Part shown: one piece after another, positions 386 through 38,331 of the stretch
Layout: the number at the start of each line of letters is the position of its first letter
Position numbering within the stretch: position 1 is the stretch's first letter
Assembly (NCBI GenBank): GCA_044892525.1
Contig: CM097885.1
Coordinates: 19,470,001 to 19,534,000, forward strand
DNA length: 64,000 nucleotides
From: Schmidtea polychroa
Lineage: Eukaryota
Reading direction: 5' to 3'
Notes under the pieces: generated by a model
Told to the model about the DNA's origin: nothing
What the model saw: only the letters and a program-made list of their open reading frames with translations
The model's database searches: none
Program-made: the position numbers and the translations under genes

Positions 386-1494
<1,109 letters not shown>

Positions 1495-1498
<4 letters not shown>

Positions 1499-4093: not shown

Positions 4094-4120
4094 ATGTATA
4101 TTGAAACACAAAAAGTTGTC

Positions 4121-4505: not shown

Positions 4506-4547
4506 TAAATGTATCCTTTCCTTTGTTGTTGTGATTATTATTATTAA

Positions 4548-4605
<58 letters not shown>

Positions 4606-12408: not shown

Positions 12409-14047
12409 CTACATCTTTTCCGGAGCAAGAGGGAAATCGTTCAAATAATTATGCAACAGAATGGGGATATTTATATTGACTTCAATAGTGTAACCAATAT
12501 CCGAATTTATACACTCGTGCAATATAGATTCAAAATTATTATAAACCCAAGTAAAATCGGCATGTGGAAGTTTTTGGCTAAGAGCCCAACCATACAAATT
12601 ATTAATATCAATATATAATAATTCTGTATTCTCTGAAGTTGAAACATGATGCTTGTTAACAAATGTCAAACTACCTCGTATTCCTCCCTCATAAAAATTG
12701 AACATTTCCATATCCTGCAAAATTTCAATCGACTCTTGTAACGTCATGAGTGCTGATATCCATGACATACCAGGAATGCCATAGAAATTCAGAGGTTCAA
12801 GACCATTGTAAGCAATGACCTTTGCGCGGAATCGTTGGATATAATCAGCCAAGAGAAATACATCTAATTTAAGATAAGTTAACATGTAGTCCAAAAGATT
12901 ATTACAATTTGTTGAGCAGTAGCATATTCATCTGCCGTAACACCATCCCAAATTGGTGGCAATTCAAGAGTAGATTCTAGAATTTCTAATGAAGTAGCAA
13001 AATTATAAGGGAAAATGCCTTTACAAGTCATAATAGAACCTTCAAAAGCAGATGGTGTCAAAGAAAGATCCAACAGCCTTTGCCAAAGAACAGTTCGATA
13101 AAACGAACAGGTAATATTTTGATATAAGAGATTAATGATATATAAATAATATTCAACTCCCACGATGGAAAATAATCAAGACCAAATTTCAAAATATGAT
13201 GAAGATCATATCCCTTCAAGTTATGAAAGACTACAGGATACTGTTTTTGAATTCGGCGAGAAATATTAAATTTACTACAGTCAGCACCAAGATACTTGCC
13301 AGAGAAATGATCATGATCTCGAACTTTGCGAATAATAAATTTTTTACAAAGGTAACAGGTTGTAAAGAAATTGAAAGCACGATTTTGGGCCCAAGTCATA
13401 GTTTTTAAAGGTGTTTTGCCACGAATTTCACAATAAGGGATAAATGCTAAATGCTAAGGGATAAATGTCAGCAATCTCTTCAATTTTACGCAAAAATTTC
13501 CAAAACACAATCAGTACCAATGAAATTATAATATGATTTTGTATTTGTGTAGTTGTTAATTAGTAAAAGGCCTGCGGATATTGGATGAATTTGACGATGT
13601 ATTACATCTTTAGGTAAAAACGATTCGAAATCGGCATAAATTAAAATTGGTGGGTAATTGTATTTGCAAAATTTTCGAATTGCAAGTTTTTATTTGTAGG
13701 AAGAGTGTAAAGAATCGTTCGTATCTGATTTTTACTACACAATGTAACATATCTATCAAAATCATGTAATCGAAATTCATTAAGGCAATGAGGGCACCAA
13801 TTAATTCTTATTCTTATCGAGCAATCTATATTATTAGGATGACAATTCATTAAACGTTGCAAGTTGATAATGGCCGTATAATGATAGTTATCATCATCTT
13901 CAAGAAGTAGCAAGTACACAGGTATGCCATCAATAACTTTGGATCTATGTATAATATCAAGGTGAGGATGATGTGGCACATAAGCATCATCATTATTACT
14001 GTCATTGTCCATAATAATTACATGTTTGTATGAAAATACACTTATAG
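12409..14047 (-). pseudogene. Protein-primed family B DNA polymerase A, middle part, 3'-truncated against the TIR
   Basis: YADFES (ExoI), CYLC..RDHDHFSGKYLG (endonuclease VII-like), FHNLKGYD, YLKLDV, YIDINNLYG, FPLAPE; many disruptions. Confidence 0.92.
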
Positions 14048-17000
14048 TGTTGGGCTAGAACTGATTTCTAGACCCAAAGTTAGGAATGGGACGAAATGTG
14101 TCAGTACACAACACGCATACCCAGCATTAAGTTTACTTAAATAAAAATATATAAAACACCAAGTAAACAATGATAATAGAGAGATAATATACCCAAAAAT
14201 AAAACATCTGAATTAAAAATAAAATAAAACACGAGCAAGAAGTATTACATGAAAACTTACTCAAATATAACCAAAAGACATAAAACAACAAAAAACAAAT
14301 TCGAATAAAGGCAATTAGTAAAAATTAAAAAAGAAAATTAAAGAAAATCTTCATAAAATCTTACGTAAAGAAAATTATATCGATATTTTGAATAAAAATC
14401 CAGAACAATTCATAAAAATGGCGAAATCCATCATGACGGCCAAACGACCCAATAAAATTTATAAAAAATAAATATTTTAGTTTAAAAAATAAATATTTTA
14501 GAAAAGAAATCATAAAAAACAATTTAAAAATAAGAAATAGATTAAATTTAGCATGGAATGTTCTGGAAATGCTGAAATCCATCATGGAGGCAAATTTAAT
14601 AAAAAATAATTCGAAAATAAAATTTCAAAAATAAAAACAAAAATTCTTACTGAAAAATCGCCATTAAAATCGATAAAAATTAAAAATCGAATGTTCGAGA
14701 ATTAAAATAATCCGAATTTGTTTTACTGCATCAATGCACGCATGTATACTTACACGTCAAACAGAGGCTATATAAACTAACACATTTCGTCACTTTTGAA
14801 GCAAGAAAAATATGCTAATGTTTACTCTTATGCCAAATTTTTGATTTTGATTTTTCTGAGATTGTAGGTAAGGACGATTTCATTGTGAATTATAAATTAT
14901 TATTATTGAAACCTTGTTTTCATTATTTCTTTTTAACTATAGAAATGTAGGTTTGAGTGAGATCGTCGGTTATCATTGATTTTGGAGCGAGATCCCAGTC
15001 AACCCTGCACCTATGCACTTTATCATCGATGATTAAACAGCCCACAATGATTGCAGGTCACTGCCTGGCACGCACTTATCAATATCATTTGTTTTTTTTT
15101 TTTTTGTTTTGTTCAGGTCATTCGGAGGTCGCACCACTTCATGGTTCTGCCATGGAGTTAAGTCGATGAAATCCTCCGTCTGACTCTACCTATTTATTAT
15201 AGGTCAGTCGTAAAGGGTTGACTTACCACACAACAGTAAGGTTTGTCGTAGTGGTCACAGTGGGGCCGCGAAAGCAAACACTCCTCCCGACTTTCAATGC
15301 ATGAATAATTTACATAGTTAAAATCTACATCCAAAATCATCACAATACAATACACTAAGGTTAATAAACAGAGTAGATCTCAGACCTAAATTAATCACAA
15401 CTCTACAATTCACAATTAATGTAGACGGTTAAATATCATCAAGAACCAACTCTACCTATACGTTTGTCGAATCTAGATTTATAAATGTCCTAAATAAATT
15501 TTCTAGTAATAATGTAAAGTAAAGATTTTTTTTTCTAAATGATTGATTTAGTAGCGATAGTATTCATAAAGGTGTTCGACATGCGTACCGGCAAGACTTG
15601 GATTTTAAATTGAATAGACTCTGAACTAACTATAAAAATACAAATCGTAAACCCATAAAAGTATAAATTATCATCTCAATTGCATAAAAATATGAATTGT
15701 ACTTATAGATTTAATTTCTTCAAAATATAAATTATGATTAGTTATAAAGGTATAAATTACAAATTTAATTTTTCAAAAATATAAATTACAAATCTATATT
15801 GACGGTAAAATTATAAATTATAACTCTAAGTTGATTGTAAAAGTATAAATTATAATCTTAATTTCTTCAAAATATAAATCATGATCTTAAAAGTATAAAT
15901 TATAAAATTATATTAGCTACAAAATATAAACTATAAATTTACCTTAACTTCATAAAAATATAAATCATAAACTTAAAAATATAACTTATAAAATTATATT
16001 AGCTTTAGAAATATAAACTATAAATTGAACTTCACCAAATATAAATTATACACTTAAAAAAAAAAAAAAAAAATTATAAAATTATATTAGCTTTAAAATA
16101 TAAACCATAAAATTAGCTTCATAAAAATATAAATTATAAACTTAAAAATACAAATTATAAAATTATATTAGCTTTGGGAATATAAACTATAAATTGAACT
16201 TCACCAAATATAAATTATAAACTTAAAAGTATAAATTATAAAATTATATCAGTTCTAAAATATAAACTATAAATTTAACTTCATAAAAATATAAATTATA
16301 AAATTATATTAGCTTTAAAATATAAACTATAAATTTAACTTAACTTAGATTGCCTTTAACATCATAGTTGAAAATTTTTCATCAAAGACCCCCCATAAAC
16401 CATATAGTCATCAACTACCACCTAAATATACTAAATTAGCTTATCTTAATATACATTTAACTTATATTATATTTAAAACTATAAATTGTAAAATTTCATG
16501 AATGACCCCCCTCAAAATTATACAGTCATTACCCATTACCTAAGCATACTAAATTGACTTATTTTTAATATATATTTAACTTACATTATAATAAAAAATA
16601 TAAGTTGTAAAATTTCATGAATGACCCCCCCTCAAAATTATACAGTCATTACCCATTACCTAAGCATACTAAATTGACTTATTTTTAATATATATTTAAC
16701 TTACATTATAATAAAAAATATAAGTTGTAAAATTTCATGAATGACCCCCCTCAAAATTATACAGTCATTACCCATTACCTAAGCATTTTAAATTAACTTA
16801 TCTTAATATATATTTAACTTATATTATATTTTAAAATATAAATTGAAAATTTTCATAAATGACCCCCCTTCAAATCATGTAGCCATTAACTATTCCTTAG
16901 GTACACGAAATTATATCATCTTCGTATAGAGCTAAATTATATTTCAAATCAAACCAAAAAATAAATAATTCCATAATTTTCGCAAAAGATACCCCCATAT

Positions 17001-19159
17001 GTGGGAATCTTGTAAAAAAATAAACTTACATTTATTATTATCATTAACATTATTATTATTATCGTTATTAATATTATTATTATTATTATTACTATTATTA
17101 TTATTATTAGTATTATTACCATTAACATTACCACTCTTATCATTATTATTACTATTATCATTACTATTATTATTATATTATTAAAATAATTATCTTTATT
17201 TCAAAAAATAAAATTATAAAACCGATTATTGATTTTGGGATTCCCCTATCTCTAAATTTAGTCTCAATGGCCCTATCTTCCAATAAAATTACGGAAAATC
17301 ACTAAAATCTATTTTTAGCAACACCCCCCCCCGGAAAACGACATCAATATTATTAATTTAAATTATATCCATATATAGGTATGTGTGTATATGTATATGT
17401 ATATATACATGTGTGTGTGTATATATATATATAGGTGTGTGTGTGTATGTACATACAGATTTATAAAGCAACCTTATAAAAATACGATAACCTTCCCCCT
17501 CAAGACCCCTGTTATGTGATGGTCACAACCCCCTTAAGGTGATGGAGCGAGGTTAGAGTAGTTTACTGAAGTAATTTAGTAGAATCATTTATTGATTTAT
17601 TAGAATTATTGGATTTATTTTTAACTAAATCAAAAGAGACTAAATTTATTTTTAACTAGATCAAAAAAAAAAAAAAGAAAAACAAAGACCAAGTTTATTG
17701 ATTTCGATCATCAACTTTATTCATATAATTGTTTCTTTGAATCATAGTTATACCAAGGTCCTTCGAGCACGGTTGATGGACCATCCCAATGAAATACATT
17801 TCCTGGAGTTGGAAGACTTCTGGGTAATTCCTTATTTTCTGCTTCGTTCCTTTTGGTTCAATGACTTACATATTGATTTGACGTAATATTGTTGGATGGC
17901 CAACTATATTCCTTGCATCTCTTTTTGAGTAGTCATTGTCAGATAATTCCGCCAGGAAGATTAGTTGGTGGAGCTGACCTTGGGGCAATCAAACCTTCGT
18001 ACCTCACTGAATTATTATCAACTCGATTGCTAAGGAAATTAATGAAGTTAATTAATTAAATTAAGGAAGTTAATTACAATTTTCTCATTGGTGTTGTCAA
18101 ACGATCTTTGCTCATTCGAGATGTCATAATACATTATTGATCAATAGTAATTGTTCGGAGATTCGGCCAAATGCTGATATTCCTGAAATATTATGAAATT
18201 TTAGGATATAAATGCTTAAAATTTTAATTTATTTACATTATTATATCAAAGTTAACTAAAATCATATATTTATTCAAAATTTGTTATTTAACATTAATTA
18301 TAATTACTATAATAAAACAACGAAAATTTAAATAATGTTAAATAACTTTAACAAAACAAAAAGTAATAATGAAATCAAAATTCCATTACTTTATTTAAAT
18401 TATTAGTTACCAACTTGTTCTAGTATTTTAACATAATGAATTCAAGTATATTACGGAGTTAGTTTGGTCATTTGAGGAATATTATAAATTGAAAATTTAA
18501 GTAGATTAGAATTATTTACTCTTCATAAGAACTTTTATGATTGTAATGAATCTAAACTTCATATATTAATATTACCCATAATTTACAAGTGATATTTGGA
18601 TTATGTTAAAATAGGTTGTAAGTTAACTTAACTAAATTGAAATTTTCTTTTGATCAGGTTATCGTGGGGAATGCATGTTATCTTTATCATTTCTATTGTT
18701 TCAGTTTATTAAGTTTTTTTTTTTTTCTAATTAAATTCATTAGTCTCAGAAATTTCTTGAGGTTTGTTTAATAAACTATGGTTATGTTTCACTTAATTTA
18801 TATTCAAACATTTTAGATGTGGTGTTGTATGAACAGGCTTTAATAGAGTAATGTATGATTCCTGATGACTTATGATCGTTTGAGGATAGAGAGTTTGTAT
18901 AGGCATAGTTGAGGAAGTGATTATAATAAGGGACCTGCGTAAATCGGACATACATCTTCTAACGATAGTCCGTGAACCCATTAGAGTGCTCGACAATTAC
19001 AGTGCAAGTAGTGCGCTCACTTTTTGCGAGTACTCACCCTCTTGATACAGTACCAACGTTGATCGTTCAACGGGTATCAAGCGGTAAACAATGTTGTATC
19101 TTGGGTTACGCTGGTAACAGCACTAAAGAGCAAAATATTTGATCATCAGTAACCCACCA
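14048..19159 (+). repeat. 5' LTR (5112 bp)
   Basis: TGTTGGGCTAG..AACCCACCA; near-identical to 30033-35057. TATA-like GGCTATATAAAC at ~14766. Confidence 0.97.
15650..16900. repeat. Minisatellites inside the LTR (AT-rich AAATATAAATTATAAA units, then ~120-bp ATGACCCCCCTCAAAATT units, about 5 copies)
   Basis: Visible tandem units; the same arrays occur in the 3' LTR at ~31636-32800. Confidence 0.9.
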
Positions 19160-19167
19160 TACAAATT

Positions 19168-19185
19168 TGGGGGCTCAGCCGGGAT
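19168..19185 (+). promoter_or_regulatory. Primer-binding site, tRNA-Pro type
   Basis: TGGGGGCTCAGCCGGGAT versus the MLV tRNA-Pro PBS TGGGGGCTCGTCCGGGAT (16/18), 8 nt downstream of the LTR end. Confidence 0.85.
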
Positions 19186-20046
19186 ATTTAAACTTTCTTG
19201 GTAAAGAACCTGTAAGTAGACGGGAATGCATAGCGGTTTTTTGATCAGAAAATGAAATGCTTTATGCAAGAGTAAGAAAGATTGTTTTCTCAAATAACTA
19301 GACATGATGTGTGAATATGCGTGTATGATCAAAATGAATGTTGAATGTTGTACATGATGAATAAAATGTTTTAAATTATGTAAATATAGAAAATCGATAA
19401 AACTGGGTATGAGAATAATGTATGAGCGTTCCGTGTTGATGGGACAGAATGTTGATGGGTAAGAAATGAAATAAAAATCAAAAATAATAAAAATTGTAAA
19501 TATAAACAACTAATACTTTGGATATAAGAAAATAATAAAAAATTCAAAAATAGGGAAAAGGGGGGGATAGAAAATAACGGTATAAAGAAAAAGGGGATAA
19601 AGCATAAAACAGTGAATTGCGAAATAGAAATGGATAGATGATGCAATTACTTAAAAATAGGGGGAAGATGTAAAACTACGTTAAAGATTAAAGGGGTATA
19701 TTGAGTATTTGATAAAATGACTAAAATTATGGACAAGCTGGGATCAAAAGGGTTATGTAGACTAAGATAATAAACTAGAGGGAACGGATAAGAATGCGCG
19801 GAACATCAGTTAATGGATTGGGAGCCTAAACTAACAGGGTAAAACAGCTATTGAACTTACATAATTTGAATAAGGAAATAAATGGGTAGAGGTAAGCTAA
19901 TTAAAGGGGAATAAGAACACTTAATAAAATGCTGAATTAATAAAGTATAACTTGATGGAATTAACCGGCTACATTATAAAGAAACTTGAAAATTCGTAAA
20001 TTTAACTAACAACTCACTACAAAGATTGAATTGAAAAGCAGAGCAG

Positions 20047-20458
20047 TTGGCAAACACTCAAGAAGGACTGATCTTAAAACCAAGACCAGTAGATGATGAA
20101 TTGTGTATAATGACGAGAATTGCTACACCAAATGTGGAATTAACTACTCAAAGAGTATATCAGATTCAGAATTTACATTTAGATAAGGCCAAATTTAACA
20201 TCAAATGGCAAGAATTAAAGATAAAAATTTAAACGGTTGAAGATGCGATAAGAGAGGCGATCGATAATGAATTCAAATGTTGTGTGTGTAGAAGCAATGA
20301 GATAAAAATAATGATGGTACCTTGCGGACATCTATGTTATTGCCAAGATTGTGCATTGAAACTGAAGCGATTGTAATGTATGTGACGCAAACATGAGAGA
20401 AAGAGTAGTAGTGTACCTCCCTGAGGGAGATGTAGAAAAATTGAAGATGATGAAATGA
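20047..20458 (+). pseudogene. IAP/MIB-type RING-HC E3 ligase remnant in the LTR-element leader
   Basis: After a stop at 20230: CCVCRSNEIKIMMVPCGHLCYCQDCALKL-(1-nt frameshift)-DCNVCDANMRERVVVYL, the C3HC4 pattern of IAP-type RINGs. Confidence 0.8.
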
Positions 20459-21849
20459 ATTGCAGCCGAGTGTGAGTTAGTAAAATGTTAGTAAAACTAA
20501 TTCCATAATAGCAACCGAAAGGTATAAAACATACGTTGAACATAGACATATGAAATACACAAAAGCCGTTAAATAAATAGACAAGCAACACACAAATTAA
20601 ATTGGCGAAAGCCGTGAATTAAATACAGGACTGGCTGGGATCGCATCAAGTGTGAGCTGATCTATAAGATCAGTACGATTACCATTTTTTTCCTGTTTTT
20701 TTTTTTTTATTTTTGGCATAGAGAGACAGGACCATAAGGGGATGAGAAGCATATCGTCCCTACGATGCTTACCCGGATGGGGAAATCCTGATCACCTTGA
20801 TGAGAAGAGTATAGTAGGGCCCATCGCAAATGTTGGGGAGTTTCTGTCGAGTGACTGATCACCACTTGTGGGAAATGAACCAACGCGATTATTATATTTT
20901 TTGAATTTGGGAGACAAGGACAAACTAGAAAGGTAAATAAAAAGAAAAAGATAAAAAATAAAAATTGAAAAGGTGCACCAAAAGATAAAAATTTTAATTA
21001 TCCGAGAGCAGCTGCGGATTTGAAGAAACCGTTTTTGGACTTCAAATCGGATGATATGAATTTTCCCTAGCGAGTGATGAGGCACCCGAGTACAGCGGCT
21101 AACCACCGGACTGTAGTGTCCAGGAGATTATCAGCCAAGGGACTGATGATGCTGGATCACCCAATACAAAAACCCGGATACCCACACCGAGTATTGGGTG
21201 CAATTTTTTTTTGATTGGCTAGCGGGACTTGATACAAAAACCCGGAGGGTAGCGAGCGAGAGAGACCCAGTTACCTACACCGAGTATTAAGGAGCCCAGT
21301 GAAACGGTTGTGAGATGCGGGTCAACCGGTAAAGGACTCGTACTCAACAGGCAACCAAGATTGGACCAGTTGTGAGGCGGGAGACCGAGAGTCAACTGCA
21401 TATCCAATTTCCTTTTATCTTCACTAGTCGGGAGATCTGGTTCATCACTTTTGAGAATCAAGATCGAGGCGATTAGGCATTTCCGTGTTTTTTAAATCCT
21501 GATAGATAGGATGTTTTTTCTTCGTGATTATTGCTAGCAGGGGTCGGTACAAAACCCGGATGCCCACACCGAGTACCGATAGGCCCAGTGAAACGGCGAT
21601 GAGATTAGGGTTACCGGTATTAAACTCTTTTCAATAGGCGGCCAAGAATTGAGCTAGTTGTGAGGCCTCAGCAGATTAATAATTTGAGTAGGAGGAACCT
21701 TAAATTTTTAATTGGTCCGAAAGTCAACTGTCAACTCAATTTAATCGCGGTAGGGACGATAGTAGGTGTAAAAACTGAAGGCGTCTGGGGGTTGAAGAAA
21801 CCTCATTTAGGGCATTTGAAACCGATCAGGGACCGAAGACCGCGAATAC

Positions 21850-22480
21850 GGCGTAAAGGTGTAAAAGCCCAGGCGTCTAGGAGTCGTAAAAGACTTCAAA
21901 GATTAAAAGTATAATTAAACCGGCCGGAAGCCGATGCCGACGCGGAGGTCGAATAAACCGAAGCGTTGATGGTTGATAGTGAATTATATGGCGTAACGGT
22001 GTAAGAACCCAGGCGTCTAGGAGTCGTAAAAGACTTCAAAGATTAAAAGTATAATTAAACCGGCCGGAAGCCGATGCCGACGCGGAGGTCGAATAAACCG
22101 AAGCGTTGATGGTTGATAGTGAATTATATGGCGTAACGGTGTAAGAACCCAGGCGTCTAGGAGTCGTAAAAGACTTCAAAGTTTAAAATATGATTAAACC
22201 GGCCGGAAGCCGATGCCGACGCGGAGGTTTAATAAACCGAAGCGTTGATGGTTGATAGTGAATTATATGGCGTAATGGTGTTAAAGCCCAGGCGTCTAGG
22301 AGTCGTAAAAGACTTCATGAGATTAAAATGAGTTGATTAAACCGGCCAGAGAGCCGATGGTAATTGAATGAAAATAAATGATTTAAATGAAATAAGAGAG
22401 GTGATTAAACCAGCCAGGGAGCCGATGGTAAATAAATGTAGACGTAGAGGTCGCGCGAACCGAAGCGTCGATGATTAACT
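21850..22480 (+). repeat. 140-bp GC-richer tandem repeat (3 full copies plus degenerate ones)
   Basis: Units start at 21850, 21990, 22130 and 22269. Confidence 0.95.
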
Positions 22481-23295
22481 ATGAACGAAATAAAAGAGAT
22501 AAACGATTAAGATGAAATCGATTAAATTGACATAGATTAAGTGCGACAAAGAGGTAATGATTAAAGGAAAATTATGATAGAGCGCCGGCGCAAGAGAAAC
22601 TGAAACCAAATTTTTGAATGGGGAAAAGCGAAGAGAGATTAAGTTACTGATGAGTTTAATATGTATATGACTAATGATATATATTTTTTAATTATATAAT
22701 TGATGTTGTGATTATATGATAGATAATTGATACGACGATATAGATAATTCATACGAGTTATAGATAATTAAAAATGGACTTAAATTCAAAGGGGGGTGAG
22801 TAGCAAAAAGTAAAAGCGTACCATCAATTAGAAAAGGAACAGCGAGAGAAATAATGAGTAAAGAGTAGTATAAAATAAAGAAAATAGGGAAATAAATGAA
22901 GGGTAGGATAAAATGAATAAAATATTATGATATGTACTAGGAGTGTTAATTATTTTAGAATAAGTCAATCAATAAGTCAGAAGGAAGTCAATACAAGCCA
23001 AGAATTCAAGAGAAATAAAGAGAAATCAAAAATTCAAAAGAAAACAACTAAGGAATCAAGAGAATCAAACGAGGATAGAAGAAAGGTAAACAAAGTCAAA
23101 TTAAATAACAAGAGGAAAATTAAAGCGTTGGCCAACGAAACACAGTGAAATTCAAAAGAGATTATTAAAGCAAGAAAAATTGATAATCAAGCCAATCGAA
23201 CGAGATCGCAGAGCAAAGGAGGCTCTAGTTTATTAGGAAACGCAGGGAGACAAAGAGCCAAGAGAAACAGAAGAATCAATAAGAAACCAGCGTCA

Positions 23296-26200
23296 GTGAA
23301 AACATTATTTGAATCAGACAGCTTAACCAACGAAGGTGAAAACAGCGACGATATTAAAAGAAACGAATTATATCCGGTAACTGATATCAAACCAACAGAC
23401 AAGGAAGATAGTAGTTCAGGCATGACAAGTTCGTGTCGAGATATAATGTTAGACGGAAACCAAGTGAACAACCCGAATGGGTCAGAGTCGACATACACAC
23501 CCGAGATAAACCATGTCAACGTCAATGTTGGAGAATTTAGAGAAAGATTTCGAGGAGAACCATTCGATGGGAATATTAATGAACTAGAAACGTTTATAAA
23601 AGAATTCGAGGTATATATTACGATATGTCACTGGCCAGACATAGTCGTACGAGAGCGAATACCATTATATTTAAGAGGAAGTGCACAAGATGTATATTTA
23701 GAGGCAAAGTGTGATACAACAAAACTAAAAACATGGAAATCAATAAAGAATTTTTTAATAAAAACATTCGGTAGCAAAAGGGAAGTAAATCGCAAAATGT
23801 TGGATTTTCTGCATCGAAAGCAGAAATACAATGAGTCAAACGCACTATATGCAGGTGAATTAAGACGACTGGCAAAAGAAGCATTCGATTCAAATCAAAC
23901 AGTTCCGGAAGACAAGATAATAGCCGTATTCGTAGAGGGTATGAAAAGAAAGGACATACGAGCAACAGTGGGTTGCCGAGCGCCAGACACGCTCGAGGAA
24001 GCATTAAAAATCGCTAATAAATGTGAAAACTACTTGACTCCAGTACAAGTAGCAGCAATGGCAGCAGTACCAATAGCTACAACACCAACAACGACAACCG
24101 AAATTAATCAAACCAACAATGAAAATCTAGGAATGAATCAATTTATCTCAGAATCGCAACAGTTGTTCAAGGCGCCAAAAACGACAAATCCAGATAACAG
24201 AGGTAATATTCAATTTTACACTAATAATTTCAGGAGCAACGAGAACAATAATCGGAAGTGTAACATATGTCAACGACTAGGACATTGGAGCAACGAGTGT
24301 TATAAGACAAGGATGTGCCAAAATTGCGGTAAAAGGGGTCACACAGAAAATATATGCCGAGGACCAATGATGTCGATGAGAAGAGGAAGGACTAGAACCT
24401 GCTACAGTTGCAACCAACTTGGACATGTGGCGAGAGAATGCGCGATGAAGACAAAACATAATCAACCAAGAGCAAACGATCCAAGTCAAAATATACAAAT
24501 CAACATCATGCAGAAAATTGAACAGTTGAAAAAGATGATCCAACGGATACCAGAGGATATCCGGAAACGACCAACAAGAGAACAACAAGACCAGCAACGA
24601 ATCGAAGGGCAGAGACCACTAAACGAAAAAGCCAGAGAAATTCAAAAAAGATGGAAAAAGCGAGAAACCAACACCGGAAGAATAAATATGATGAGATTAA
24701 TGAACAAAGGGGAACCGCACACTGCGGAGCAGTGTGTTAACAAGAAAGGGAGCGATATGACCGTAATCAACGAGACAAAAGTGATAAAAGAAAATGGGTC
24801 ACATCAATTGACGGAGCAATTGACAGAACTGAGTAGCGAGGATAAAATAAAAATAATACAAGGGTTCACCAAAGAAGAAAAAGAAAAGAGACGAAGAAGA
24901 GATGAAACAGGGCACGAACCAAAAAGCAACGAGATTGTTACAAAGAATCGAATTCAGAGGGTATTACTACAAAAAATTGAAGATAGAATTAGAAGAGAAG
25001 AACCAAAATTAACGGATGAGCAAGTAAAAGAAAAAGTAAAAGACAACTGGTTCAGGAAAAATGAGTGGTTCGAAAAAGAACCAAGTAACAGAGCCAATAT
25101 AAACATGCTGAGACAAATACAGAATGATCAGACGGATCAGGAAGACGGGAAAAGTGCGATGAGTAGCCTGAGAAGTGAATTATCTCAATCAAGTGATGAA
25201 AATAATGAACAAGGAACACCTCAAAATAACGAAGAGGGTGAGAGCGACGATATGGGATCACTGATAGAAAATGACGATGAGGAAATATTCGAGGAAATTT
25301 CCGACATGGTATCGGAAAGAGAACGAAATGAGAGCTATATCAACGAACCAACATACAGAAAATGTATAAAACTGATAACTCAAGCATACCAGTGGGAAGG
25401 AGATATATTAACGGCAACATGGAAAGATTTGGTGACGAAATATAAAGGAAAATTGAAAGAAGTTGATCCAGATCAATACCAAGTAAGTATTCAACACCCT
25501 GAAACTCAGATACAGATTATTGAATTAAAAGTAACAAATACCGATAAACTGTATAATTGGGTACAACAAAAGATGGGAACAAGTCATAAAAATAAACAGC
25601 TATACGACAATGGTTATAAAGTTAAAATGAGCATACATTTAGTAGATATGATGAGATGGCCAAACGAAGTTAATATCTTAATCTTAAAGAAAAACAGAGA
25701 CAGCGAATCAGTAACGGAAATACTGAGGAAAATCCAACAGATATTCAACAATGAAGTGGAACCAGAAATAGAAAAGACTGAACAAAAGATAATGAAGGAA
25801 AATCAAATAATCTTAGTAAAACAAGCAATCGATCAAACGAAGAAATATATTAACAGATTTAGGGAAAGATGGCCGCAGCTAATGAAACAGTTTGTCAAAG
25901 ACGTACGGGATACTGAGATTATGGGATTTGAATATAAACGAGCAACGGAGTTGATATCAAAATATGGTGAATACGAGAGAATCAGATGTGAACAAGAATT
26001 ACCATGGCCATCCAACAGAAAAGTGACAATAGTAAGAGAATCACTAAAGAATAGTCATTTAAATAAACACGAAGAAATGATCAAAACATCACATGTCGAA
26101 GACGACATTTTTGGAAAAGGCCGGAGTGGAAAAAATGACAAAGACCATAACGACAAAAATGAGGAAGACGACGGGAACCATGAAAGGAACAACATAAATG

Positions 26201-27861
26201 GGAACTCAAACGAACGAGATAATGAAGAAGACAAGGAGTCAGAAGATGACGACGAAGACTTGAAGGATACTGAGGACAACTCAGACCAAAGTGAAGACAA
26301 CCAACTTAATGAAACAGAGAACGACAAACGAAAGTCCCCACTGCATAACATAGTAATGCGGAAGAATCTAAACCAGTCACTCCTACTACAAATTATCCTA
26401 ATAATACTAACGTCAATTTGCCTAACAGAAACGAAAAATACGCGAATTACGAGAGGAAATCTGAAAGAAGGCGAACTATTCATGATAAAAGTCAGCGGCA
26501 ACAACGGAAACGCGGTCGGGATATGCATCCAATTGATGGAAGGAACCGGAGTAAGTTGTGATTTTAGAACGATAACAAAAGGGAGGATTTTCAATAGTCA
26601 AAATGTAGAACCTGAATTATGCGGAGACTACAACATTTGCGAAGACATAACATCAGAAGAAAAAGAATTGGAAAGAGCTAACGAAACCGGAGTACATGTC
26701 GCAATTAAAGCTACAATGGAAGGTATCGAAATAATAGATAAAGGAAATTTGCCAACAACGCAAATATGTTTTAGAGATGACGAAGACATATGTATAACGG
26801 TGGACATGAAACGAGATCGCGAATTTTTTTGGACAAACGTAAAACCAAACACCAACATGGTGGTATGCGCAGGTACCCAGGCAATAGTGGTATGTAAAGC
26901 AGTTAAAACCGCGCAAATAAAAAGCAGGCCAAAAAGTATGGCTAGTAAACGATATCAACCAAGGATCAAACCGGCAATTAAGAAACGCCAGAAACAATCC
27001 CGTAGGGGAATGATAAGAGGACAGCACCAAACCAAGAAAAACAAAACAGTAATATGGATCAAAGATGAGAGACGAGAAGTACTAGTAAATGTCGAATTCA
27101 ACAAGAAAAGAGAAGAAGTAATCACGGTCAGAAACCAAGGTGAAGAACCAATAGTAAGAGTATGTGTACTAAACAGGACAGGAATAGTCGACTGCATAGA
27201 AACACTACTTGACAAAGGTGCAGAAGTTAAAATGACAATAGGAGAAAGAAAGGGACGATATCACATATGCGTTCTTAAAAACGGAAGCGATTTAAGTTCA
27301 TGCCAAGCAATAACCAGACAACGACCACGGATGATAAACATACTATTGACAACCAGAAAACCAAAAGAAGTGGAAAAGCCAAAAGGAAACGAACATCTAA
27401 CGGCAGAAGAAACGAAACAGTTATACCAGATGCTCAAGAAAAATAAAACACAAGAGGCAACTACAACAGAAACTAAAATGATGATAACGACAGGAAAATT
27501 CAACGAGACACTGATAACCGTTAAAATGATGTGGATCGCTAGCGCAATAATGAGTGCAGTGATAACATCAATAATAATCCAATGGATAAGAACCTCCAAA
27601 ATATGTAAACAAAAACCTAAAGGCAGAAAAAGATGGCCACAAGTGGAGAATTCCGAATATGGTATTCCAACCGAAGACCCGAATCCAGAAGAGTACGAAG
27701 CGATTGAAGATCCAAGGTCAAGCAGACTATGGACGCAAGAATTACTCAGAATACAAACCCTAGACGATTGGGTAAACGAATTTGACATATACCGGCTAAC
27801 GGATGAAAGATATGGGGGAATGCGCACATTGCATTCAGGTCCCCTGGCAACAATGGTATAA
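23296..27861 (+). CDS. gag: Gag polyprotein (capsid plus 3 CCHC knuckles) fused to acidic/coiled regions and a Cys-rich type I membrane (Env-like) module; no PR/RT/RH/IN recognised
   Basis: PFDG..FIKEFE..W..LRGSAQ and RKQKYNESNALYAGELRRLA (capsid/MHR-like); CNICQRLGHWSNEC, CQNCGKRGHTENIC, CYSCNQLGHVAREC; hydrophobic segments at ~26377 and ~27526. The same frame extends upstream to 22927 through one TGA at 23146. Confidence 0.9.
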   Translation: MKTLFESDSLTNEGENSDDIKRNELYPVTDIKPTDKEDSSSGMTSSCRDIMLDGNQVNNPNGSESTYTPEINHVNVNVGEFRERFRGEPFDGNINELETFIKEFEVYITICHWPDIVVRERIPLYLRGSAQDVYLEAKCDTTKLKTWKSIKNFLIKTFGSKREVNRKMLDFLHRKQKYNESNALYAGELRRLAKEAFDSNQTVPEDKIIAVFVEGMKRKDIRATVGCRAPDTLEEALKIANKCENYLTPVQVAAMAAVPIATTPTTTTEINQTNNENLGMNQFISESQQLFKAPKTTNPDNRGNIQFYTNNFRSNENNNRKCNICQRLGHWSNECYKTRMCQNCGKRGHTENICRGPMMSMRRGRTRTCYSCNQLGHVARECAMKTKHNQPRANDPSQNIQINIMQKIEQLKKMIQRIPEDIRKRPTREQQDQQRIEGQRPLNEKAREIQKRWKKRETNTGRINMMRLMNKGEPHTAEQCVNKKGSDMTVINETKVIKENGSHQLTEQLTELSSEDKIKIIQGFTKEEKEKRRRRDETGHEPKSNEIVTKNRIQRVLLQKIEDRIRREEPKLTDEQVKEKVKDNWFRKNEWFEKEPSNRANINMLRQIQNDQTDQEDGKSAMSSLRSELSQSSDENNEQGTPQNNEEGESDDMGSLIENDDEEIFEEISDMVSERERNESYINEPTYRKCIKLITQAYQWEGDILTATWKDLVTKYKGKLKEVDPDQYQVSIQHPETQIQIIELKVTNTDKLYNWVQQKMGTSHKNKQLYDNGYKVKMSIHLVDMMRWPNEVNILILKKNRDSESVTEILRKIQQIFNNEVEPEIEKTEQKIMKENQIILVKQAIDQTKKYINRFRERWPQLMKQFVKDVRDTEIMGFEYKRATELISKYGEYERIRCEQELPWPSNRKVTIVRESLKNSHLNKHEEMIKTSHVEDDIFGKGRSGKNDKDHNDKNEEDDGNHERNNINGNSNERDNEEDKESEDDDEDLKDTEDNSDQSEDNQLNETENDKRKSPLHNIVMRKNLNQSLLLQIILIILTSICLTETKNTRITRGNLKEGELFMIKVSGNNGNAVGICIQLMEGTGVSCDFRTITKGRIFNSQNVEPELCGDYNICEDITSEEKELERANETGVHVAIKATMEGIEIIDKGNLPTTQICFRDDEDICITVDMKRDREFFWTNVKPNTNMVVCAGTQAIVVCKAVKTAQIKSRPKSMASKRYQPRIKPAIKKRQKQSRRGMIRGQHQTKKNKTVIWIKDERREVLVNVEFNKKREEVITVRNQGEEPIVRVCVLNRTGIVDCIETLLDKGAEVKMTIGERKGRYHICVLKNGSDLSSCQAITRQRPRMINILLTTRKPKEVEKPKGNEHLTAEETKQLYQMLKKNKTQEATTTETKMMITTGKFNETLITVKMMWIASAIMSAVITSIIIQWIRTSKICKQKPKGRKRWPQVENSEYGIPTEDPNPEEYEAIEDPRSSRLWTQELLRIQTLDDWVNEFDIYRLTDERYGGMRTLHSGPLATMV

Positions 27862-28299
27862 GAAAGTGATGAGTCGATGTAAATAGTGTGTATATAAACG
27901 TGAGGGTAAAAGTAGTTTAGTAGATTAGTAATATGTTCAAAAAAAAAAAAGGTACAAAAAAAATGGGTAGGATAACTACGTATTATGAATGAATCAGAGA
28001 AACGAGGATCAAGTATATCAAACGAGGATACCACATGTTGTTGAATTGGGAAATCAACCACTAGTAAACATTAATCAGACATAAATAGTAGAAATTGATA
28101 CAAGTACAACGATAAACCAACCAAGTTAGTCAGCAGGATCAATGTGAAGAACACAATGTGAATTAATGACAAATGACAAATCATACCCAAGAATATCGGT
28201 TACGTAATTAGAATGCGTTAATGGAGAGCATCAATAGAAACTCGATATATATAACAAGAATAAAAGAGCAATAACAAATAATCGCACAATTAAAATACA

Positions 28300-29350
28300 A
28301 TAACAAACAGTTGATAAGCCAAATAAAATGGGAGGCAGGAGAAATCGGGAGATTACACGAAAACCATCAGCATGATGATATAACGAGTTAAGTTGAATGG
28401 ATAACCGGCCTACCAGGAACTGGGGAACCGGACTCAACGAGAGAGGCATAAAAGAAGGGAAAAGTAGCCCTGTAAACAAACAAAATTATAGCCAAAGTAG
28501 AAAATCCGAAATTAAACGCTATCATGGCAGAATGCCGAGGGAAAGTGGAGAGAAGTGGAGGAACAAAACTATTAATTATGAGCTGATAAGAAAATATTAG
28601 GTCAAGTCAGATGAATTCGAGGAGAGACTATTGTGTGTGGACAAAGTGTGTAGAAGATTATTAATAGGACACGTCAAACCCTATGAGGATGTAGATTATG
28701 CCATGGAGGTACTACACGAATTGTAACGAGAAAAGCAGAAATTAAAGAGAGAACCACAGCAAGAATCAGCCACATCCCAGATGACAATAATAATAAAAAT
28801 CTTAGAAGAAATAAAGCAGCGAATAATGATGACTGTCAACGAATGTCCGAGCAACTATGAAACAAAGACGCTCGAAGAAATAAAGGAAAGAATAAATAAC
28901 GCAGTCAAAGAAAAGACAATTACTCAAGATGAAATAATAAAAACATTGAGAGAGATATAGATGGAAATAATAACAACTATTGACAAAATCCCGATGAACC
29001 ATGAGACAATGACCAAAACTTTAGAAGGAATAAAGAGGAGAATATCAACTACCTTCAACGAAGACTTCGCATACTAAAATGTCCTAATAAAGATGTTCAC
29101 GGAAATCTGGAAAGGAGTAATGACGACAGTAAACAATACCCTACACACTGAATCAAATAACCTCGAAGAGGAACTCAACTCGACTGATACAATCCAACTA
29201 ATGAAAACAGTGAGCACGTTGCGAGAGATATAGAAAGAAGTGACAATCAAAACAAGGTCAGCAGAAAAAAAAAAAATTGAATGTAAAGAAAACCCAGAAT
29301 CCATAACAGTACTGATCCTGTCAGCAGCGAATCTCATGATAAATAACAAT
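28300..29350 (+). pseudogene. Probable decayed second ORF of the LTR element
   Basis: Same purine-rich coding bias as gag, with protein-like pieces (ECPSNYETKTLEEIKERINNAVKEK.., MFTEIWKGVMTTVNN) broken by stops. No family recognised. Confidence 0.4.
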
Positions 29351-30032
29351 ACTGAGCTTGATAGCCCTTAAACCCACTCAAATCCATGAAAGCACCAAAA
29401 TCTCTCAAGTTGAAAGAACAATTCCGAAGCATTCGCATTCTAATAGACGAACCAATACCCAGAGACCAAATCTATCAAATCTATCAAATCTATCTTCTAC
29501 AACCTTCAAAACTAGAACCGTCATCGAGACGAGATCCCGAACAACCGAGTGTTTAAATCCTGATATAAACCGACAATGATCTTGATATAATATGACAACG
29601 ATATTGAGTTGATTGACAATGTTCTTATTATGTGTTGACAATGATCCTGATTCGATTGACAATGATCTGAAAATGATCTAGATGTGATTTAATAATGATC
29701 CTGACATGATACAACAATGATATGATTTGATTATTATTGTGATTTGATGCCAATATTATATATTACTATGATATTATTTGAGCATAACAATTTGATTAAA
29801 TTTTGTGTGGACCGACCTTGGTCTTCTTTCTCTTCATCTGTAAACCAATCTGTAGCATGTAGCTTATCAGTAGAAACTTTTTATGTATGTGGGTATTGAG
29901 GTCACGACCCTGTAGCTCGTGGACCCAATTACATGTAGGCACTTGTAATACAGTGCAACCAATTCTGTCTAATTATATCTTGAACATTGATTAAATTGCG
30001 GGTCGCAATTTTATGGGCCCCCGAGTGTTTTA

Positions 30033-33000
30033 TGTTGGGCTAGAACTGATTTCTAGACCCAAAGTTAGGAATGGGACGAAATGTGTCAGTACACAACACG
30101 CATACCCAGCATTAAGTTTACTTAAATAAAAATATATAAAACACCAAGTAAACAATGATAATAGAGAGATAATATACCCAAAAATAAAACATCTGAATTA
30201 AAAATAAAATAAAACACGAGCAAGAAGTATTACATGAAAACTTACTCAAATATAACCAAAAGACATAAAACAACAAAAAACAAATTCGAATAAAGGCAAT
30301 TAGTAAAAATTAAAAAAGAAAATTAAAGAAAATCTTCATAAAATCTTACGTAAAGAAAATTATATCGATATTTTGAATAAAAATCCAGAACAATTCATAA
30401 AAATGGCGAAATCCATCATGACGGCCAAACGACCCAATAAAATTTATAAAAAATAAATATTTTAGTTTAAAAAATAAATATTTTAGAAAAGAAATCATAA
30501 AAAACAATTTAAAAATAAGAAATAGATTAAATTTAGCATGGAATGTTCTGGAAATGCTGAAATCCATCATGGAGGCAAATTTAATAAAAAATAATTCGAA
30601 AATAAAATTTCAAAAATAAAAACAAAAATTCTTACTGAAAAATCGCCATTAAAATCGATAAAAATTAAAAATCGAATGTTCGAGAATTAAAATAATCCGA
30701 ATTTGTTTTACTGCATCAATGCACGCATGTATACTTACACGTCAAACAGAGGCTATATAAACTAACACATTTCGTCACTTTTGAAGCAAGAAAAATATGC
30801 TAATGTTTACTCTTATGCCAAATTTTTGATTTTGATTTTTCTGAGATTGTAGGTAAGGACGATTTCATTGTGAATTATAAATTATTATTATTGAAACCTT
30901 GTTTTCATTATTTCTTTTTAACTATAGAAATGTAGGTTTGAGTGAGATCGTCGGTTATCATTGATTTTGGAGCGAGATCCCAGTCAACCCTGCACCTATG
31001 CACTTTATCATCGATGATTAAACAGCCCACAATGATTGCAGGTCACTGCCTGGCACGCACTTATCAATATCATTTGTTTTTTTTTTTTTTTGTTTTGTTC
31101 AGGTCATTCGGAGGTCGCACCACTTCATGGTTCTGCCATGGAGTTAAGTCGATGAAATCCTCCGTCTGACTCTACCTATTTATTATAGGTCAGTCGTAAA
31201 GGGTTGACTTACCACACAACAGTAAGGTTTGTCGTAGTGGTCACAGTGGGGCCGCGAAAGCAAACACTCCTCCCGACTTTCAATGCATGAATAATTTACA
31301 TAGTTAAAATCTACATCCAAAATCATCACAATACAATACACTAAGGTTAATAAACAGAGTAGATCTCAGACCTAAATTAATCACAACTCTACAATTCACA
31401 ATTAATGTAGACGGTTAAATATCATCAAGAACCAACTCTACCTATACGTTTGTCGAATCTAGATTTATAAATGTCCTAAATAAATTTTCTAGTAATAATG
31501 TAAAGTAAAGATTTTTTTTTCTAAATGATTGATTTAGTAGCGATAGTATTCATAAAGGTGTTCGACATGCGTACCGGCAAGACTTGGATTTTAAATTGAA
31601 TAGACTCTGAACTAACTATAAAAATACAAATCGTAAACCCATAAAAGTATAAATTATCATCTCAATTGCATAAAAATATGAATTGTACTTATAGATTTAA
31701 TTTCTTCAAAATATAAATTATGATTAGTTATAAAGGTATAAATTACAAATTTAATTTTTCAAAAATATAAATTACAAATCTATATTGACGGTAAAATTAT
31801 AAATTATAACTCTAAGTTGATTGTAAAAGTATAAATTATAATCTTAATTTCTTCAAAATATAAATCATGATCTTAAAAGTATAAATTATAAAATTATATT
31901 AGCTACAAAATATAAACTATAAATTTACCTTAACTTCATAAAAATATAAATCATAAACTTAAAAATATAACTTATAAAATTATATTAGCTTTAAAATATA
32001 AACCATAAAATTAGCTTCATAAAAATATAAATTATAAACTTAAAAATACAAATTATAAAATTATATTAGCTTTGGGAATATAAACTATAAATTGAACTTC
32101 ACCAAATATAAATTATAAACTTAAAAGTATAAATTATAAAATTATATCAGTTCTAAAATATAAACTATAAATTTAACTTCATAAAAATATAAATTATAAA
32201 ATTATATTAGCTTTAAAATATAAACTATAAATTTAACTTAACTTAGATTGCCTTTAACATCATAGTTGAAAATTTTTCATCAAAGACCCCCCATAAACCA
32301 TATAGTCATCAACTACCACCTAAATATACTAAATTAGCTTATCTTAATATACATTTAACTTATATTATATTTAAAACTATAAATTGTAAAATTTCATGAA
32401 TGACCCCCCTCAAAATTATACAGTCATTACCCATTACCTAAGCATACTAAATTGACTTATTTTTAATATATATTTAACTTACATTATAATAAAAAATATA
32501 AGTTGTAAAATTTCATGAATGACCCCCCCTCAAAATTATACAGTCATTACCCATTACCTAAGCATACTAAATTGACTTATTTTTAATATATATTTAACTT
32601 ACATTATAATAAAAAATATAAGTTGTAAAATTTCATGAATGACCCCCCTCAAAATTATACAGTCATTACCCATTACCTAAGCATTTTAAATTAACTTATC
32701 TTAATATATATTTAACTTATATTATATTTTAAAATATAAATTGAAAATTTTCATAAATGACCCCCCTTCAAATCATGTAGCCATTAACTATTCCTTAGGT
32801 ACACGAAATTATATCATCTTCGTATAGAGCTAAATTATATTTCAAATCAAACCAAAAAATAAATAATTCCATAATTTTCGCAAAAGATACCCCCATATGT
32901 GGGAATCTTGTAAAAAAATAAACTTACATTTATTATTATCATTAACATTATTATTATTATCGTTATTAATATTATTATTATTATTATTACTATTATTATT

Positions 33001-35057
33001 ATTATTAGTATTATTACCATTAACATTACCACTCTTATCATTATTATTACTATTATCATTACTATTATTATTATATTATTAAAATAATTATCTTTATTTC
33101 AAAAAATAAAATTATAAAACCGATTATTGATTTTGGGATTCCCCTATCTCTAAATTTAGTCTCAATGGCCCTATCTTCCAATAAAATTACGGAAAATCAC
33201 TAAAATCTATTTTTAGCAACACCCCCCCCCGGAAAACGACATCAATATTATTAATTTAAATTATATCCATATATAGGTATGTGTGTATATGTATATGTAT
33301 ATATACATGTGTGTGTGTATATATATATATAGGTGTGTGTGTGTATGTACATACAGATTTATAAAGCAACCTTATAAAAATACGATAACCTTCCCCCTCA
33401 AGACCCCTGTTATGTGATGGTCACAACCCCCTTAAGGTGATGGAGCGAGGTTAGAGTAGTTTACTGAAGTAATTTAGTAGAATCATTTATTGATTTATTA
33501 GAATTATTGGATTTATTTTTAACTAAATCAAAAGAGACTAAATTTATTTTTAACTAGATCAAAAAAAAAAAAAGAAAAACAAAGACCAAGTTTATTGATT
33601 TCGATCATCAACTTTATTCATATAATTGTTTCTTTGAATCATAGTTATACCAAGGTCCTTCGAGCACGGTTGATGGACCATCCCAATGAAATACATTTCC
33701 TGGAGTTGGAAGACTTCTGGGTAATTCCTTATTTTCTGCTTCGTTCCTTTTGGTTCAATGACTTACATATTGATTTGACGTAATATTGTTGGATGGCCAA
33801 CTATATTCCTTGCATCTCTTTTTGAGTAGTCATTGTCAGATAATTCCGCCAGGAAGATTAGTTGGTGGAGCTGACCTTGGGGCAATCAAACCTTCGTACC
33901 TCACTGAATTATTATCAACTCGATTGCTAAGGAAATTAATGAAGTTAATTAATTAAATTAAGGAAGTTAATTACAATTTTCTCATTGGTGTTGTCAAACG
34001 ATCTTTGCTCATTCGAGATGTCATAATACATTATTGATCAATAGTAATTGTTCGGAGATTCGGCCAAATGCTGATATTCCTGAAATATTATGAAATTTTA
34101 GGATATAAATGCTTAAAATTTTAATTTATTTACATTATTATATCAAAGTTAACTAAAATCATATATTTATTCAAAATTTGTTATTTAACATTAATTATAA
34201 TTACTATAATAAAACAACGAAAATTTAAATAATGTTAAATAACTTTAACAAAACAAAAAGTAATAATGAAATCAAAATTCCATTACTTTATTTAAATTAT
34301 TAGTTACCAACTTGTTCTAGTATTTTAACATAATGAATTCAAGTATATTACGGAGTTAGTTTGGTCATTTGAGGAATATTATAAATTGAAAATTTAAGTA
34401 GATTAGAATTATTTACTCTTCATAAGAACTTTTATGATTGTAATGAATCTAAACTTCATATATTAATATTACCCATAATTTACAAGTGATATTTGGATTA
34501 TGTTAAAATAGGTTGTAAGTTAACTTAACTAAATTGAAATTTTCTTTTGATCAGGTTATCGTGGGGAATGCATGTTATCTTTATCATTTCTATTGTTTCA
34601 GTTTATTAAGTTTTTTTTTTTTTTCTAATTAAATTCATTAGTCTCAGAAATTTCTTGAGGTTTGTTTAATAAACTATGGTTATGTTTCACTTAATTTATA
34701 TTCAAACATTTTAGATGTGGTGTTGTATGAACAGGCTTTAATAGAGTAATGTATGATTCCTGATGACTTATGATCGTTTGAGGATAGAGAGTTTGTATAG
34801 GCATAGTTGAGGAAGTGATTATAATAAGGGACCTGCGTAAATCGGACATACATCTTCTAACGATAGTCCGTGAACCCATTAGAGTGCTCGACAATTACAG
34901 TGCAAGTAGTGCGCTCACTTTTTGCGAGTACTCACCCTCTTGATACAGTACCAACGTTGATCGTTCAACGGGTATCAAGCGGTAAACAATGTTGTATCTT
35001 GGGTTACGCTGGTAACAGCACTAAAGAGCAAAATATTTGATCATCAGTAACCCACCA
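30033..35057 (+). repeat. 3' LTR (5025 bp)
   Basis: Copy of 14048-19159, differing visibly by one ~88-bp minisatellite indel and homopolymer lengths. Confidence 0.97.
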
Positions 35058-35935
35058 ATAGCAAGGTTTAGATGACAATTTTTCTTCTCAAATTTCGATC
35101 AGTTATAGGGTCATAATTAATCTCATTCAAGAAACCGGTATACTTACTCACTCTATTCCAATGATTTCTAATCTGATCATGTTTTAATACAGCAAGTACA
35201 CTATATATAAAAAGCACATATTGTCTGTATTCTTAATGTTCACTATTGCAGTTTTATTATACAACGATGTTGGTGTTGGTATATATAAATGGCCGGATAA
35301 GCGATTAATTGGATAATATTTTGTCAAGATAAACACAATTTCTTTAATTTTATTTATTCGCCACCCACTACCGAGATATGTAAATTTATCTATTTTCTCG
35401 TTTGATTTTTGTGACCCTTTAATAATAAAATCATCCGAGAAAACAAGTGCTGTATTTGAAAAATAGTTGTCCCTAATTTCTCCATCTTTTTCAAATTGTA
35501 TAAAAACTGTAAATTGTATTTTTTCAGACCCGATCTTGCTTATTTCTAATGCTAGATGAACCCTAATTTTATCCGTTAAAGATATTTGAATCAATTGATG
35601 TTTAGAAACATCAAATCGTAGATTTTTTCGAGCACTTTGAAACTCGATAGTTATAATAGGATCATCATCTACATGTAAAGACCCTCCTACTTGATTAATA
35701 GGAATACGAGGGGAATCAGCAACACCTGCTTCATTGTCACTTTTTTAATAATTTTAGTTGAGACAACTTCATTTTTATTTTTTACAGACCTTTTATTGTT
35801 ATTATTATTAATTATGTTAAAGAATTGCCTATTAAAGATTTCTCTAAACATTTCCTTCCTATTTGATGAAAACTGATTTATTAAATGTATTCACTGTAAA
35901 ACTCTTTAAAAGTAGAATGGTTAATAGTCTTGCAT
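35058..35935 (-). pseudogene. pPolB A, N-terminal part (continues at 14047); 5' limit approximate
   Basis: KIQF..GSGWRINKI..YIPTP..AIVNIKNTDNMCFLY, the Polinton pPolB N-terminal motifs. Confidence 0.88.
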
Positions 35936-36813: not shown

Positions 36814-36960
36814 TTGTGAATTTGAAAATAAATTGTGACAAAACTACCAATGTCAATGTTTATAAAGTGATTGTGACTTTAAAAATCAAACAATCAACAA
36901 CATATACATTTTAAAATCAATAAAATAGATTAAACAATAAAATAAAACCAGAAACATTTA

Positions 36961-37345
36961 TTATAAATCAAATATTTTATACACCAACCATATTAAACAG
37001 TGTTGACCCCATGTTTGAGTCATTGAATTTTGAAACATTGTTTTATTATATACAATAGGTTTACCCATTCTTTGAAATTTCGATACCAATAACGCAGGAT
37101 AATAGAATCCCATAGGATCGAATACATGTATCCTATCGGGTTTTACATAGACTCCAATCCAATGTTGACCACCAAGATGTGATGAATGGGTATTGACGAT
37201 TATGTCTTGATTATTACGTAAATATGGTATTTTATTCAATGGATATACTCCAACAAACTCATTTCCTAAAAACTGTTTTCCAATTCGATTGACCTGTATA
37301 AAACTACCTCAATAAATTAGATAATACACAAAGAACTTACTCCAT
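36961..37345 (-). pseudogene. Adenain-type protease, copy 2 (37-nt intron 37304-37340; catalytic Cys replaced by Trp)
   Basis: MDFIQVNRIGKQFLGNEFVGVYP..GQHWIG..FDPMG..QTWGQHC. Confidence 0.9.
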
Positions 37346-37379
37346 GACAAATTTTTAATATTACCAAACGCATTTTTAC

Positions 37380-38267
37380 CTATACCAGAACAGTTCTATT
37401 TGCAGTAATTCGTACCTCATTTTCAAATACTCCATATATTCTAACATGCACAGGTTCTGCAATAGCTTTTGCAAACTTTATATCTAATCGTAAATTTCCA
37501 TTTGGAGGTAATTGACTCTGATTCAAATCAAAATCAGGTGCGAAAACAAATGTAAAGAACGGTTATTTGGTTTTGAATTCTTCAGGAATTATTCCACAAT
37601 TCAAATTTTTATCTAAATAGTCCATATTTCTTGCAATACTTTGCATATATGTAGCAGAGTAATTATCATTATCAAAATCTTGATTATATGTTTCTCTATA
37701 ATCAGTATTTTTCGATAGTGACAAGGATGTAACATCAAAGTTTTTGAAAATTGAGCTTGAAGCAATGTATGATCCATTATATGGAGTTTCAGATTGAAAT
37801 GTTATCAGAATCAAGTTTGGCATTCTTCTATCTCCATATATTTGTTCCTTATAGAAGGAAGAAGCACCTTTGGCTATTGCAAATGAAACAATTTCTTTGG
37901 TTTTCAGTGGATAGATCGCATGCTTAGAATTAAGACCCAACTGATGACCTGCTAATACCGACGGATCAACTCGAACTCGTCTTACTTGTAATTTTGCATC
38001 AACTAATTGACATATTGGTTGACCATTAGCACTAGTTAGTGACAATGCAGAATCGGTTCTTTTCAACCTAATGTGCACATTGACTCCTGGAAGTAAATAT
38101 TATGGTTGATCTAGAAAGTCAGCTGTAATGATGAACACATGGTAAAAATCTTTGAGCCTTTAATCCACTTTTTTCTATCGTCATCAGTTCCCGCATAGCC
38201 CATAGGAGTAAGATATGTATTTTTAGTATCGGTATTATAATTTAAAATAGTTTCTATTATCGCCTTG

Positions 38268-38270
<3 letters not shown>
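37380..38270 (-). pseudogene. Major capsid protein, copy 2; 5' part lost at a (TA)n tract
   Basis: Closely similar to 3205-4093 (HKAIIETILNYN..VRRVRVDPSVLAGH..GNLRLDIKFAKA); frameshifts. Confidence 0.93.

Positions 38271-38331
<61 letters not shown>
38271..38331. repeat. (TA)n microsatellite at the deletion junction
   Basis: Visible directly. Confidence 0.97.

Follow-up and report, generated by a model that had tools for sequence, protein, structure and literature searches.

A 21-kb LTR element with a long Gag-containing frame and no recognisable pol occupies positions 14048-35057, on the plus strand, of the 64,000-nucleotide stretch of Schmidtea polychroa contig CM097885.1 analysed here (the window). 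From its sequence, we judge it moderately probable that this element inserted very recently and belongs to a non-autonomous LTR lineage, related to Burro, that has kept its Gag.

Insertion into a decayed Polinton

Comparison of the window with itself returned 14048-19159 and 30033-35057 as a single long direct repeat. The 5' LTR (plus strand, 5112 bp) runs from TG to CA and contains AT-rich and 120-bp tandem arrays; the 3' LTR (plus strand) measures 5025 bp, and the interior between the two is 10,873 bp long. A 4-bp sequence, ATAG, adjoins the element on the left (14044-14047) and on the right (35058-35061), both on the plus strand, and is the sole matching length among the lengths of 3 to 8 bp that were tested. 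The element thus has the two direct LTRs, TG...CA ends and 4-6 bp target-site duplication (TSD) of an LTR retrotransposon. In a global alignment of 5114 columns the LTR pair shows no substitutions and four indels, one of 88 bp within the AT-rich tandem array and three of 1 bp in homopolymers. Divergence between the LTRs is at most 0.0006 (95% upper bound), a value to be read in the knowledge that assembly polishing or gene conversion can homogenise LTRs. A first-pass annotation, made from the sequence alone, had described LTRs that are identical apart from one repeat indel of about 88 bp and homopolymer lengths, an exact TSD, and recent mobilisation. The alignment, the flanking ATAG and the divergence bound agree with these descriptions, the last of them barring gene conversion.

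The element is inserted into a decayed Polinton and splits its polB gene. One portion of the decayed polB lies to the left of the insertion (12418-13889, minus strand), and an upstream portion of the same region lies to the right (35140-35645, minus strand). Both flanks are collinear on the minus strand with a Polinton polB region elsewhere in the window (Pfam DNA_pol_B_2). Since collinear pieces of one decayed polB are found on both sides, the element truly inserted here and did not arise by segmental duplication. Gene conversion aside, the insertion is very recent.

Giant repeats are a known problem in planarian assemblies, as noted in the accessible part of PMC11410931, and the three 1-bp homopolymer differences resemble sequencing error; the structure might in principle be a collapsed or mis-joined repeat from which pol was dropped or in which one LTR was duplicated. 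We find such an artefact scarcely credible, given the exact TSD, the collinear polB flanks, a frame that stays open across 4.7 kb, and the 88-bp unit, which distinguishes the LTRs and so indicates that they were assembled separately. It is also very improbable that the insertion is older, with LTRs homogenised by gene conversion and an ORF for Gag and membrane protein kept by the host through co-option or as a restriction factor. The intact ORF beside decayed remnants (see below) would fit this history, and co-option of Gag and Env is known in animals. However, conversion would hardly leave 5 kb fully identical up to both termini while the TSD stays intact, and the location is a graveyard of Polinton and DNA-transposon pieces.

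The neighbourhood includes a Polinton/Maverick cluster at 650-4552, broken in places, with an integrase carrying a chromodomain, capsid-like pieces and an adenovirus-type C5 protease; 3198-4552 has an inverted copy at 36912-38280 (82%). The second Polinton polB region, which served as the reference for the target site, spans 40158-42462, where two frames overlap, and includes a zinc finger like that of Endonuclease VII. A 435-bp repeat (12567-12973 and 58987-59421, 74% identity) is another polB-related fragment. Decayed DNA-transposase-like frames at 8946-10528 are hAT/Buster-like by eye, with no Pfam match at E<=0.05 in 8946-9899, and a 373-aa frame at 48616-49737 contains DUF659, a hAT-related domain (E 3.6e-11).

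The Gag-containing frame and its membrane unit

On its plus strand the element has a single long frame, P0001, which extends intact from stop to stop over 1570 codons (23149-27861). Its first ATG, at 23422, aligns with a Met of the homolog P0002. A further 75 codons are open in frame upstream (22921-23148), separated from the main ORF by one stop at 23146, and the N-terminus of P0002 is longer than that of P0001, which leaves the true start of P0001 uncertain. Pfam identified Retrotrans_gag (aa 172-266) and zf-CCHC, and the frame contains three CX2CX4HX4C knuckles (aa 371-431); the Gag domain and the knuckles are encoded at 23662-24441 on the plus strand. The earlier proposal that the element keeps its own Gag is upheld by these domains in the open frame, and the element retains far more than Gag.

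Protein searches yielded two homologs in total, P0002 and P0003, both MetaClust records. P0002 matches the Gag of P0001 and onward to aa 919 in two blocks (44% and 37%). P0003 matches aa 593-944 at 44% identity and then continues into a full MATH domain (E 3e-28). The unnamed region common to P0003 and P0002 is encoded at 24925-25980 (plus strand). A search among proteins of near length gave one match in 3327 candidates and a search of representatives gave one, neither match reaching aa 945-1570; no homologs were found among longer or among shorter proteins, and tblastn of P0002 and P0003 against the leader and tail gave no match. Exactly where the homology to P0003 ends, aa 945-961 of P0001 match the middle of the P0003 MATH domain, with about 290 residues skipped. 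We interpret this segment (25981-26031, plus strand) as a probable MATH-domain stub, about 290 aa having been lost in frame by comparison with P0003. The 16-aa match was reached in 1 of 3000 shuffles within the 56 aa after the break and in 91 of 500 over all 626 remaining residues, the latter not significant.

A cleavage-like motif, [IV]N[MVILA][MVIL], occurs five times in P0001, a number equalled in 5 of 2000 shuffles, and five times in P0002 (0 of 2000), in a shuffle test that is lenient since the motif was defined after sight of the sequences. Four of the motifs stand at matching places, and these are kept in P0001 although no protease is encoded.

In frame behind Gag, in the position of Env in Burro elements, hydropathy and the cysteine positions delimit a type I membrane-protein-like unit (26368-27588, plus strand). 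It consists of a signal-like hydrophobic segment (aa 1074-1092), a beta-rich region with 12 cysteines and a basic insert, a transmembrane helix (aa 1460-1480) and a tail of about 90 aa; the two hydrophobic segments are the strongest in P0001. Searches with the unit gave no Pfam or PDB sequence match, no gypsy Env (class I) and no homolog. In language-model features, aa 1070-1500 come closest to clusters of class II fusogens (top score 0.90, 185 of 256 features common); removal of the hydrophobic segments lowers the score to 0.81, which a third of shuffled proteins also reach. Single-sequence structure models were poor, with a pLDDT of 37.6 for a 503-aa model (unusable) and 58 for another. A 100-aa model gave generic beta-sandwich matches only (best Z 6.3, rmsd 4.0, 96 aligned), with no viral fold match at E<=0.001 and no class II fusogen among the fold matches. 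The predicted resemblance of the membrane unit to class II fusogens, the group of Phlebovirus Gc, flavivirus E, HAP2 and EFF-1, is a weak lead. Three repeats noticed by eye in the Cys-rich region fell short of significance (478, 347 and 1106 of 3000 shuffles).

By its nearest feature clusters the unit would resemble that of nematode BEL/Pao elements with a Phlebovirus-G2-like (class II) Env. It differs from these in the score obtained without hydrophobic segments and in having no Pfam or PDB sequence match, and the three canonical CX2CX4HX4C knuckles of P0001 presumably depart from the BEL/Pao Gag knuckle pattern.

Absence of pol and origin of the element

The first-pass annotation recognised no protease, reverse transcriptase or integrase in the interior, and an HMM scan gave the same result. 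No protease (PR), reverse transcriptase (RT), RNase H (RH) or integrase (IN) was found by Pfam at E<=1 in the six interior frames, with stops read as X, or in the three plus-strand LTR frames, the LTRs being scanned on this strand only. The element thus lacks the PR-RT-RH-IN coding region of an autonomous Ty3/Gypsy element. P0001 contains neither D[ST]G nor YxDD; its sole [YF]xDD match is FRDD at aa 1208, inside the Cys-rich region. A PDB search of two of the three plus-strand tail frames returned no pol enzyme. Inspection by eye picked out protease-like and integrase-end-like words in the tail; these had no Pfam or PDB support and were rejected as pol remnants. The approximately 830 bp behind the ORF stop are closed in all three frames (30, 15 and 21 stops per ~276 codons), which leaves no junction flanked by an intact piece of pol.

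Two further plus-strand frames have decayed. One, at 19900-20385, is an accessory ORF with eight stops in 162 codons that ends in an IAP-type RING finger (20269-20382; Pfam zf-C3HC4_3 E 3.9e-7, best PDB match BIRC3 E 2.8e-7). This broken C3HC4 RING was the only match above the curated cut-off in the stop-masked scan of interior and LTR frames. The other, at 28691-29371, is coding-like, with four internal stops in 226 codons and no family match. Compared with 0 stops in the 1570 codons of the main frame, these counts differ by Fisher test (p 5e-9 and 2.4e-4, respectively, for frames chosen by eye). Since the remnants carry stops and the LTRs and main ORF carry no such damage, the decay predates the insertion and spared the ORF. 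For the non-autonomous satellite put forward in the first-pass annotation, this contrast provides indirect support. No BIR, ankyrin or BCL2-like domain was detected in the element.

A probable relationship to Burro/GYPSM1, the giant gypsy-like elements of dugesiid planarians, is supported by architecture, as distinct from comparison with a named Burro sequence. The accessible part of PMC6431247 describes Burro as encoding Gag with three CCHC knuckles, MATH, a BCL2-like domain, Env and pol in one 4873-aa frame, together with BIR and ankyrin motifs. Both elements have very long LTRs and a Retrotrans_gag domain and three CCHC knuckles that open one long frame. In frame behind Gag, the present element has a membrane-protein-like unit where Burro has Env. 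It also has an IAP-related accessory remnant in its decayed RING, and it is collinear with the MATH-domain protein P0003, itself keeping only the stub. The Burro connection drawn from LTR size in the first-pass annotation gains from this, in that the homologs carry the Gag with three CCHC knuckles and the MATH domain reported in the accessible part of PMC6431247. The element differs from Burro in size (21 kb as against more than 30 kb, 1570 as against 4873 codons), in lacking PR, dUTPase, RT, RH and IN, in the reduction of MATH to a stub, in having no BCL2, BIR or ankyrin match, and in a membrane unit that does not match gypsy Env (class I), the reported Env type of Burro.

The absence of LTR substitutions means that pol was either supplied in trans for this copy or lost later. 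An autonomous Burro-type element could have lost pol in one event, whether by template switching in the reverse transcription that produced this copy or by deletion after insertion, and its ORF would then reflect selection on the parent. A single copy has been seen, in keeping with this. Active elements can carry dead accessory ORFs along, and a parent that already had the dead RING ORF, the dead 3' ORF and the MATH stub would leave the same picture. Burro has Env and pol in frame after Gag (PMC6431247, in its accessible part), and one deletion behind the transmembrane segment would remove all of pol. Nevertheless, no intact pol fragment remains on either side of any candidate junction, the BCL2-like and other Burro cargo domains are also undetected, and a deletion after insertion must have occurred before one substitution accumulated in 5 kb of LTR. 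We regard such a one-off deletion as rather unlikely, if deserving of weight. The MATH stub, as a second in-frame loss, suggests step-wise shrinkage in which the frame was kept. With no intact pol at any junction and this probable second loss, a pol-less replicating lineage is the simpler reading, drawn here from one copy; P0002 and P0003, at only 44% identity, represent a different family and date none of the losses.

DNA nearly identical to 22900-30100 (ORF and tail) was present in part in 20 of the 24 listed runs. At least half of its words occurred in nine runs from five studies, with shares of at most 0.73 that may be almost wholly ORF; these figures record presence, as distinct from junctions or copy number, and one run may be the source sample. 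None of the listed runs with this DNA was an RNA run. In collection scans, 0 of 4 pattern matches were confirmed in viral contigs and 0 of 85 in metagenome contigs, and the LTR-PBS junction pattern gave 0.

Gag-keeping non-autonomous LTR elements have been described mainly from plants. Plant TR-GAG and LARD elements similarly combine intact LTRs, primer-binding site and TSD with a retained Gag and absent enzymes, in what the accessible part of PMC13570524 calls a 'semi-autonomous' manner. In contrast to these, the present element has an animal host, is far larger, has no detected protease remnant and no polypurine tract, and fuses Gag to some 1100 additional residues, a transmembrane unit among them. 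We found no earlier description of a pol-less Burro form in a literature search whose scope lay outside Grohme et al. 2018 and Repbase Reports, which may list truncated or non-autonomous forms; the accessible parts of PMC13238120, PMC8532177, PMC11410931 and bioRxiv 10.64898/2025.12.11.693146 do not describe one. From a 21-kb animal case with its long cargo and membrane unit, one would learn what a giant retroelement needs in cis when its enzymes come in trans. It would amount to a natural minimal Burro, suited to asking which of the cargo domains are important and if Burro particles exit cells; a single deletion copy would be routine.

RNA ends, leader and possible replication in trans

A tRNA primer-binding site (PBS) is present by virtue of a PBS-Pro core at 19168. 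The PBS-like site (19168-19185, plus strand) begins 8 nt after the LTR, and the first 9 of its 18 nt are the conserved core of proline-tRNA primer sites given in the accessible part of PMC10602909. No tRNA gene was found within the window. A polypurine tract is absent before the 3' LTR: over the final 150 nt, 13-nt windows contain at most nine purines, and no window with nine adjoins the LTR. At the position expected for this tract lies a 13-nt near-complement (30014-30026, plus strand) of the PBS flank (19165-19177). In plus-strand RNA the two could form a 13-bp helix with three G.U pairs, as computed on one copy; the helix ranks first among the duplexes of 2701 interior windows and is equalled in 6 of 2000 shuffles. 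The interior is bordered at its two ends by near-inverted repeats, a PBS complement taking the place of the polypurine tract. The arrangement is reminiscent of Ty1 CYC5/CYC3 cyclisation, in which a stretch at the PBS has its complement close to the RNA 3' end (PMC3681743, accessible part). Here, unlike in Ty1, the partner overlaps the PBS itself and its complement lies just before U3 in place of the polypurine tract, in a pairing computed on one copy.

If the element does belong to a pol-less lineage, an ancestor would have shed pol, along with parts of its polyprotein cargo, several replication cycles back, after which the accessory ORFs decayed and the Gag-containing frame stayed open. The 5' LTR would drive the genomic RNA, which the element's own Gag would package into mixed particles that also contain the polyprotein of a helper, an autonomous element of Burro type. 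At the retained I-N-(M/I/V)-(M/L) sites the helper protease may cut, and the helper RT may prime on tRNA-Pro, perhaps aided by the 5'-3' pairing of RNA ends; the helper integrase would then insert the cDNA with a 4-bp TSD. A more far-reaching picture would be a spreading family of enzyme-less satellites that encode, within one polyprotein, both a capsid and a class II-like envelope or fusion protein of their own, borrow PR, RT and integrase from Burro, close their RNA by PBS-complementary pairing without a canonical polypurine tract, and pass as particles between cells. We consider this picture, taken as a whole, improbable.

Rfam gave no match at E<=1 in 18500-31000. The leader contains a 140-bp tandem repeat in 3.7 copies (21846-22359, plus strand). 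Before this array, at 21169-21666, are short direct repeats (115 bp at 73% and 25 bp at 96%), possibly packaging or promoter elements.
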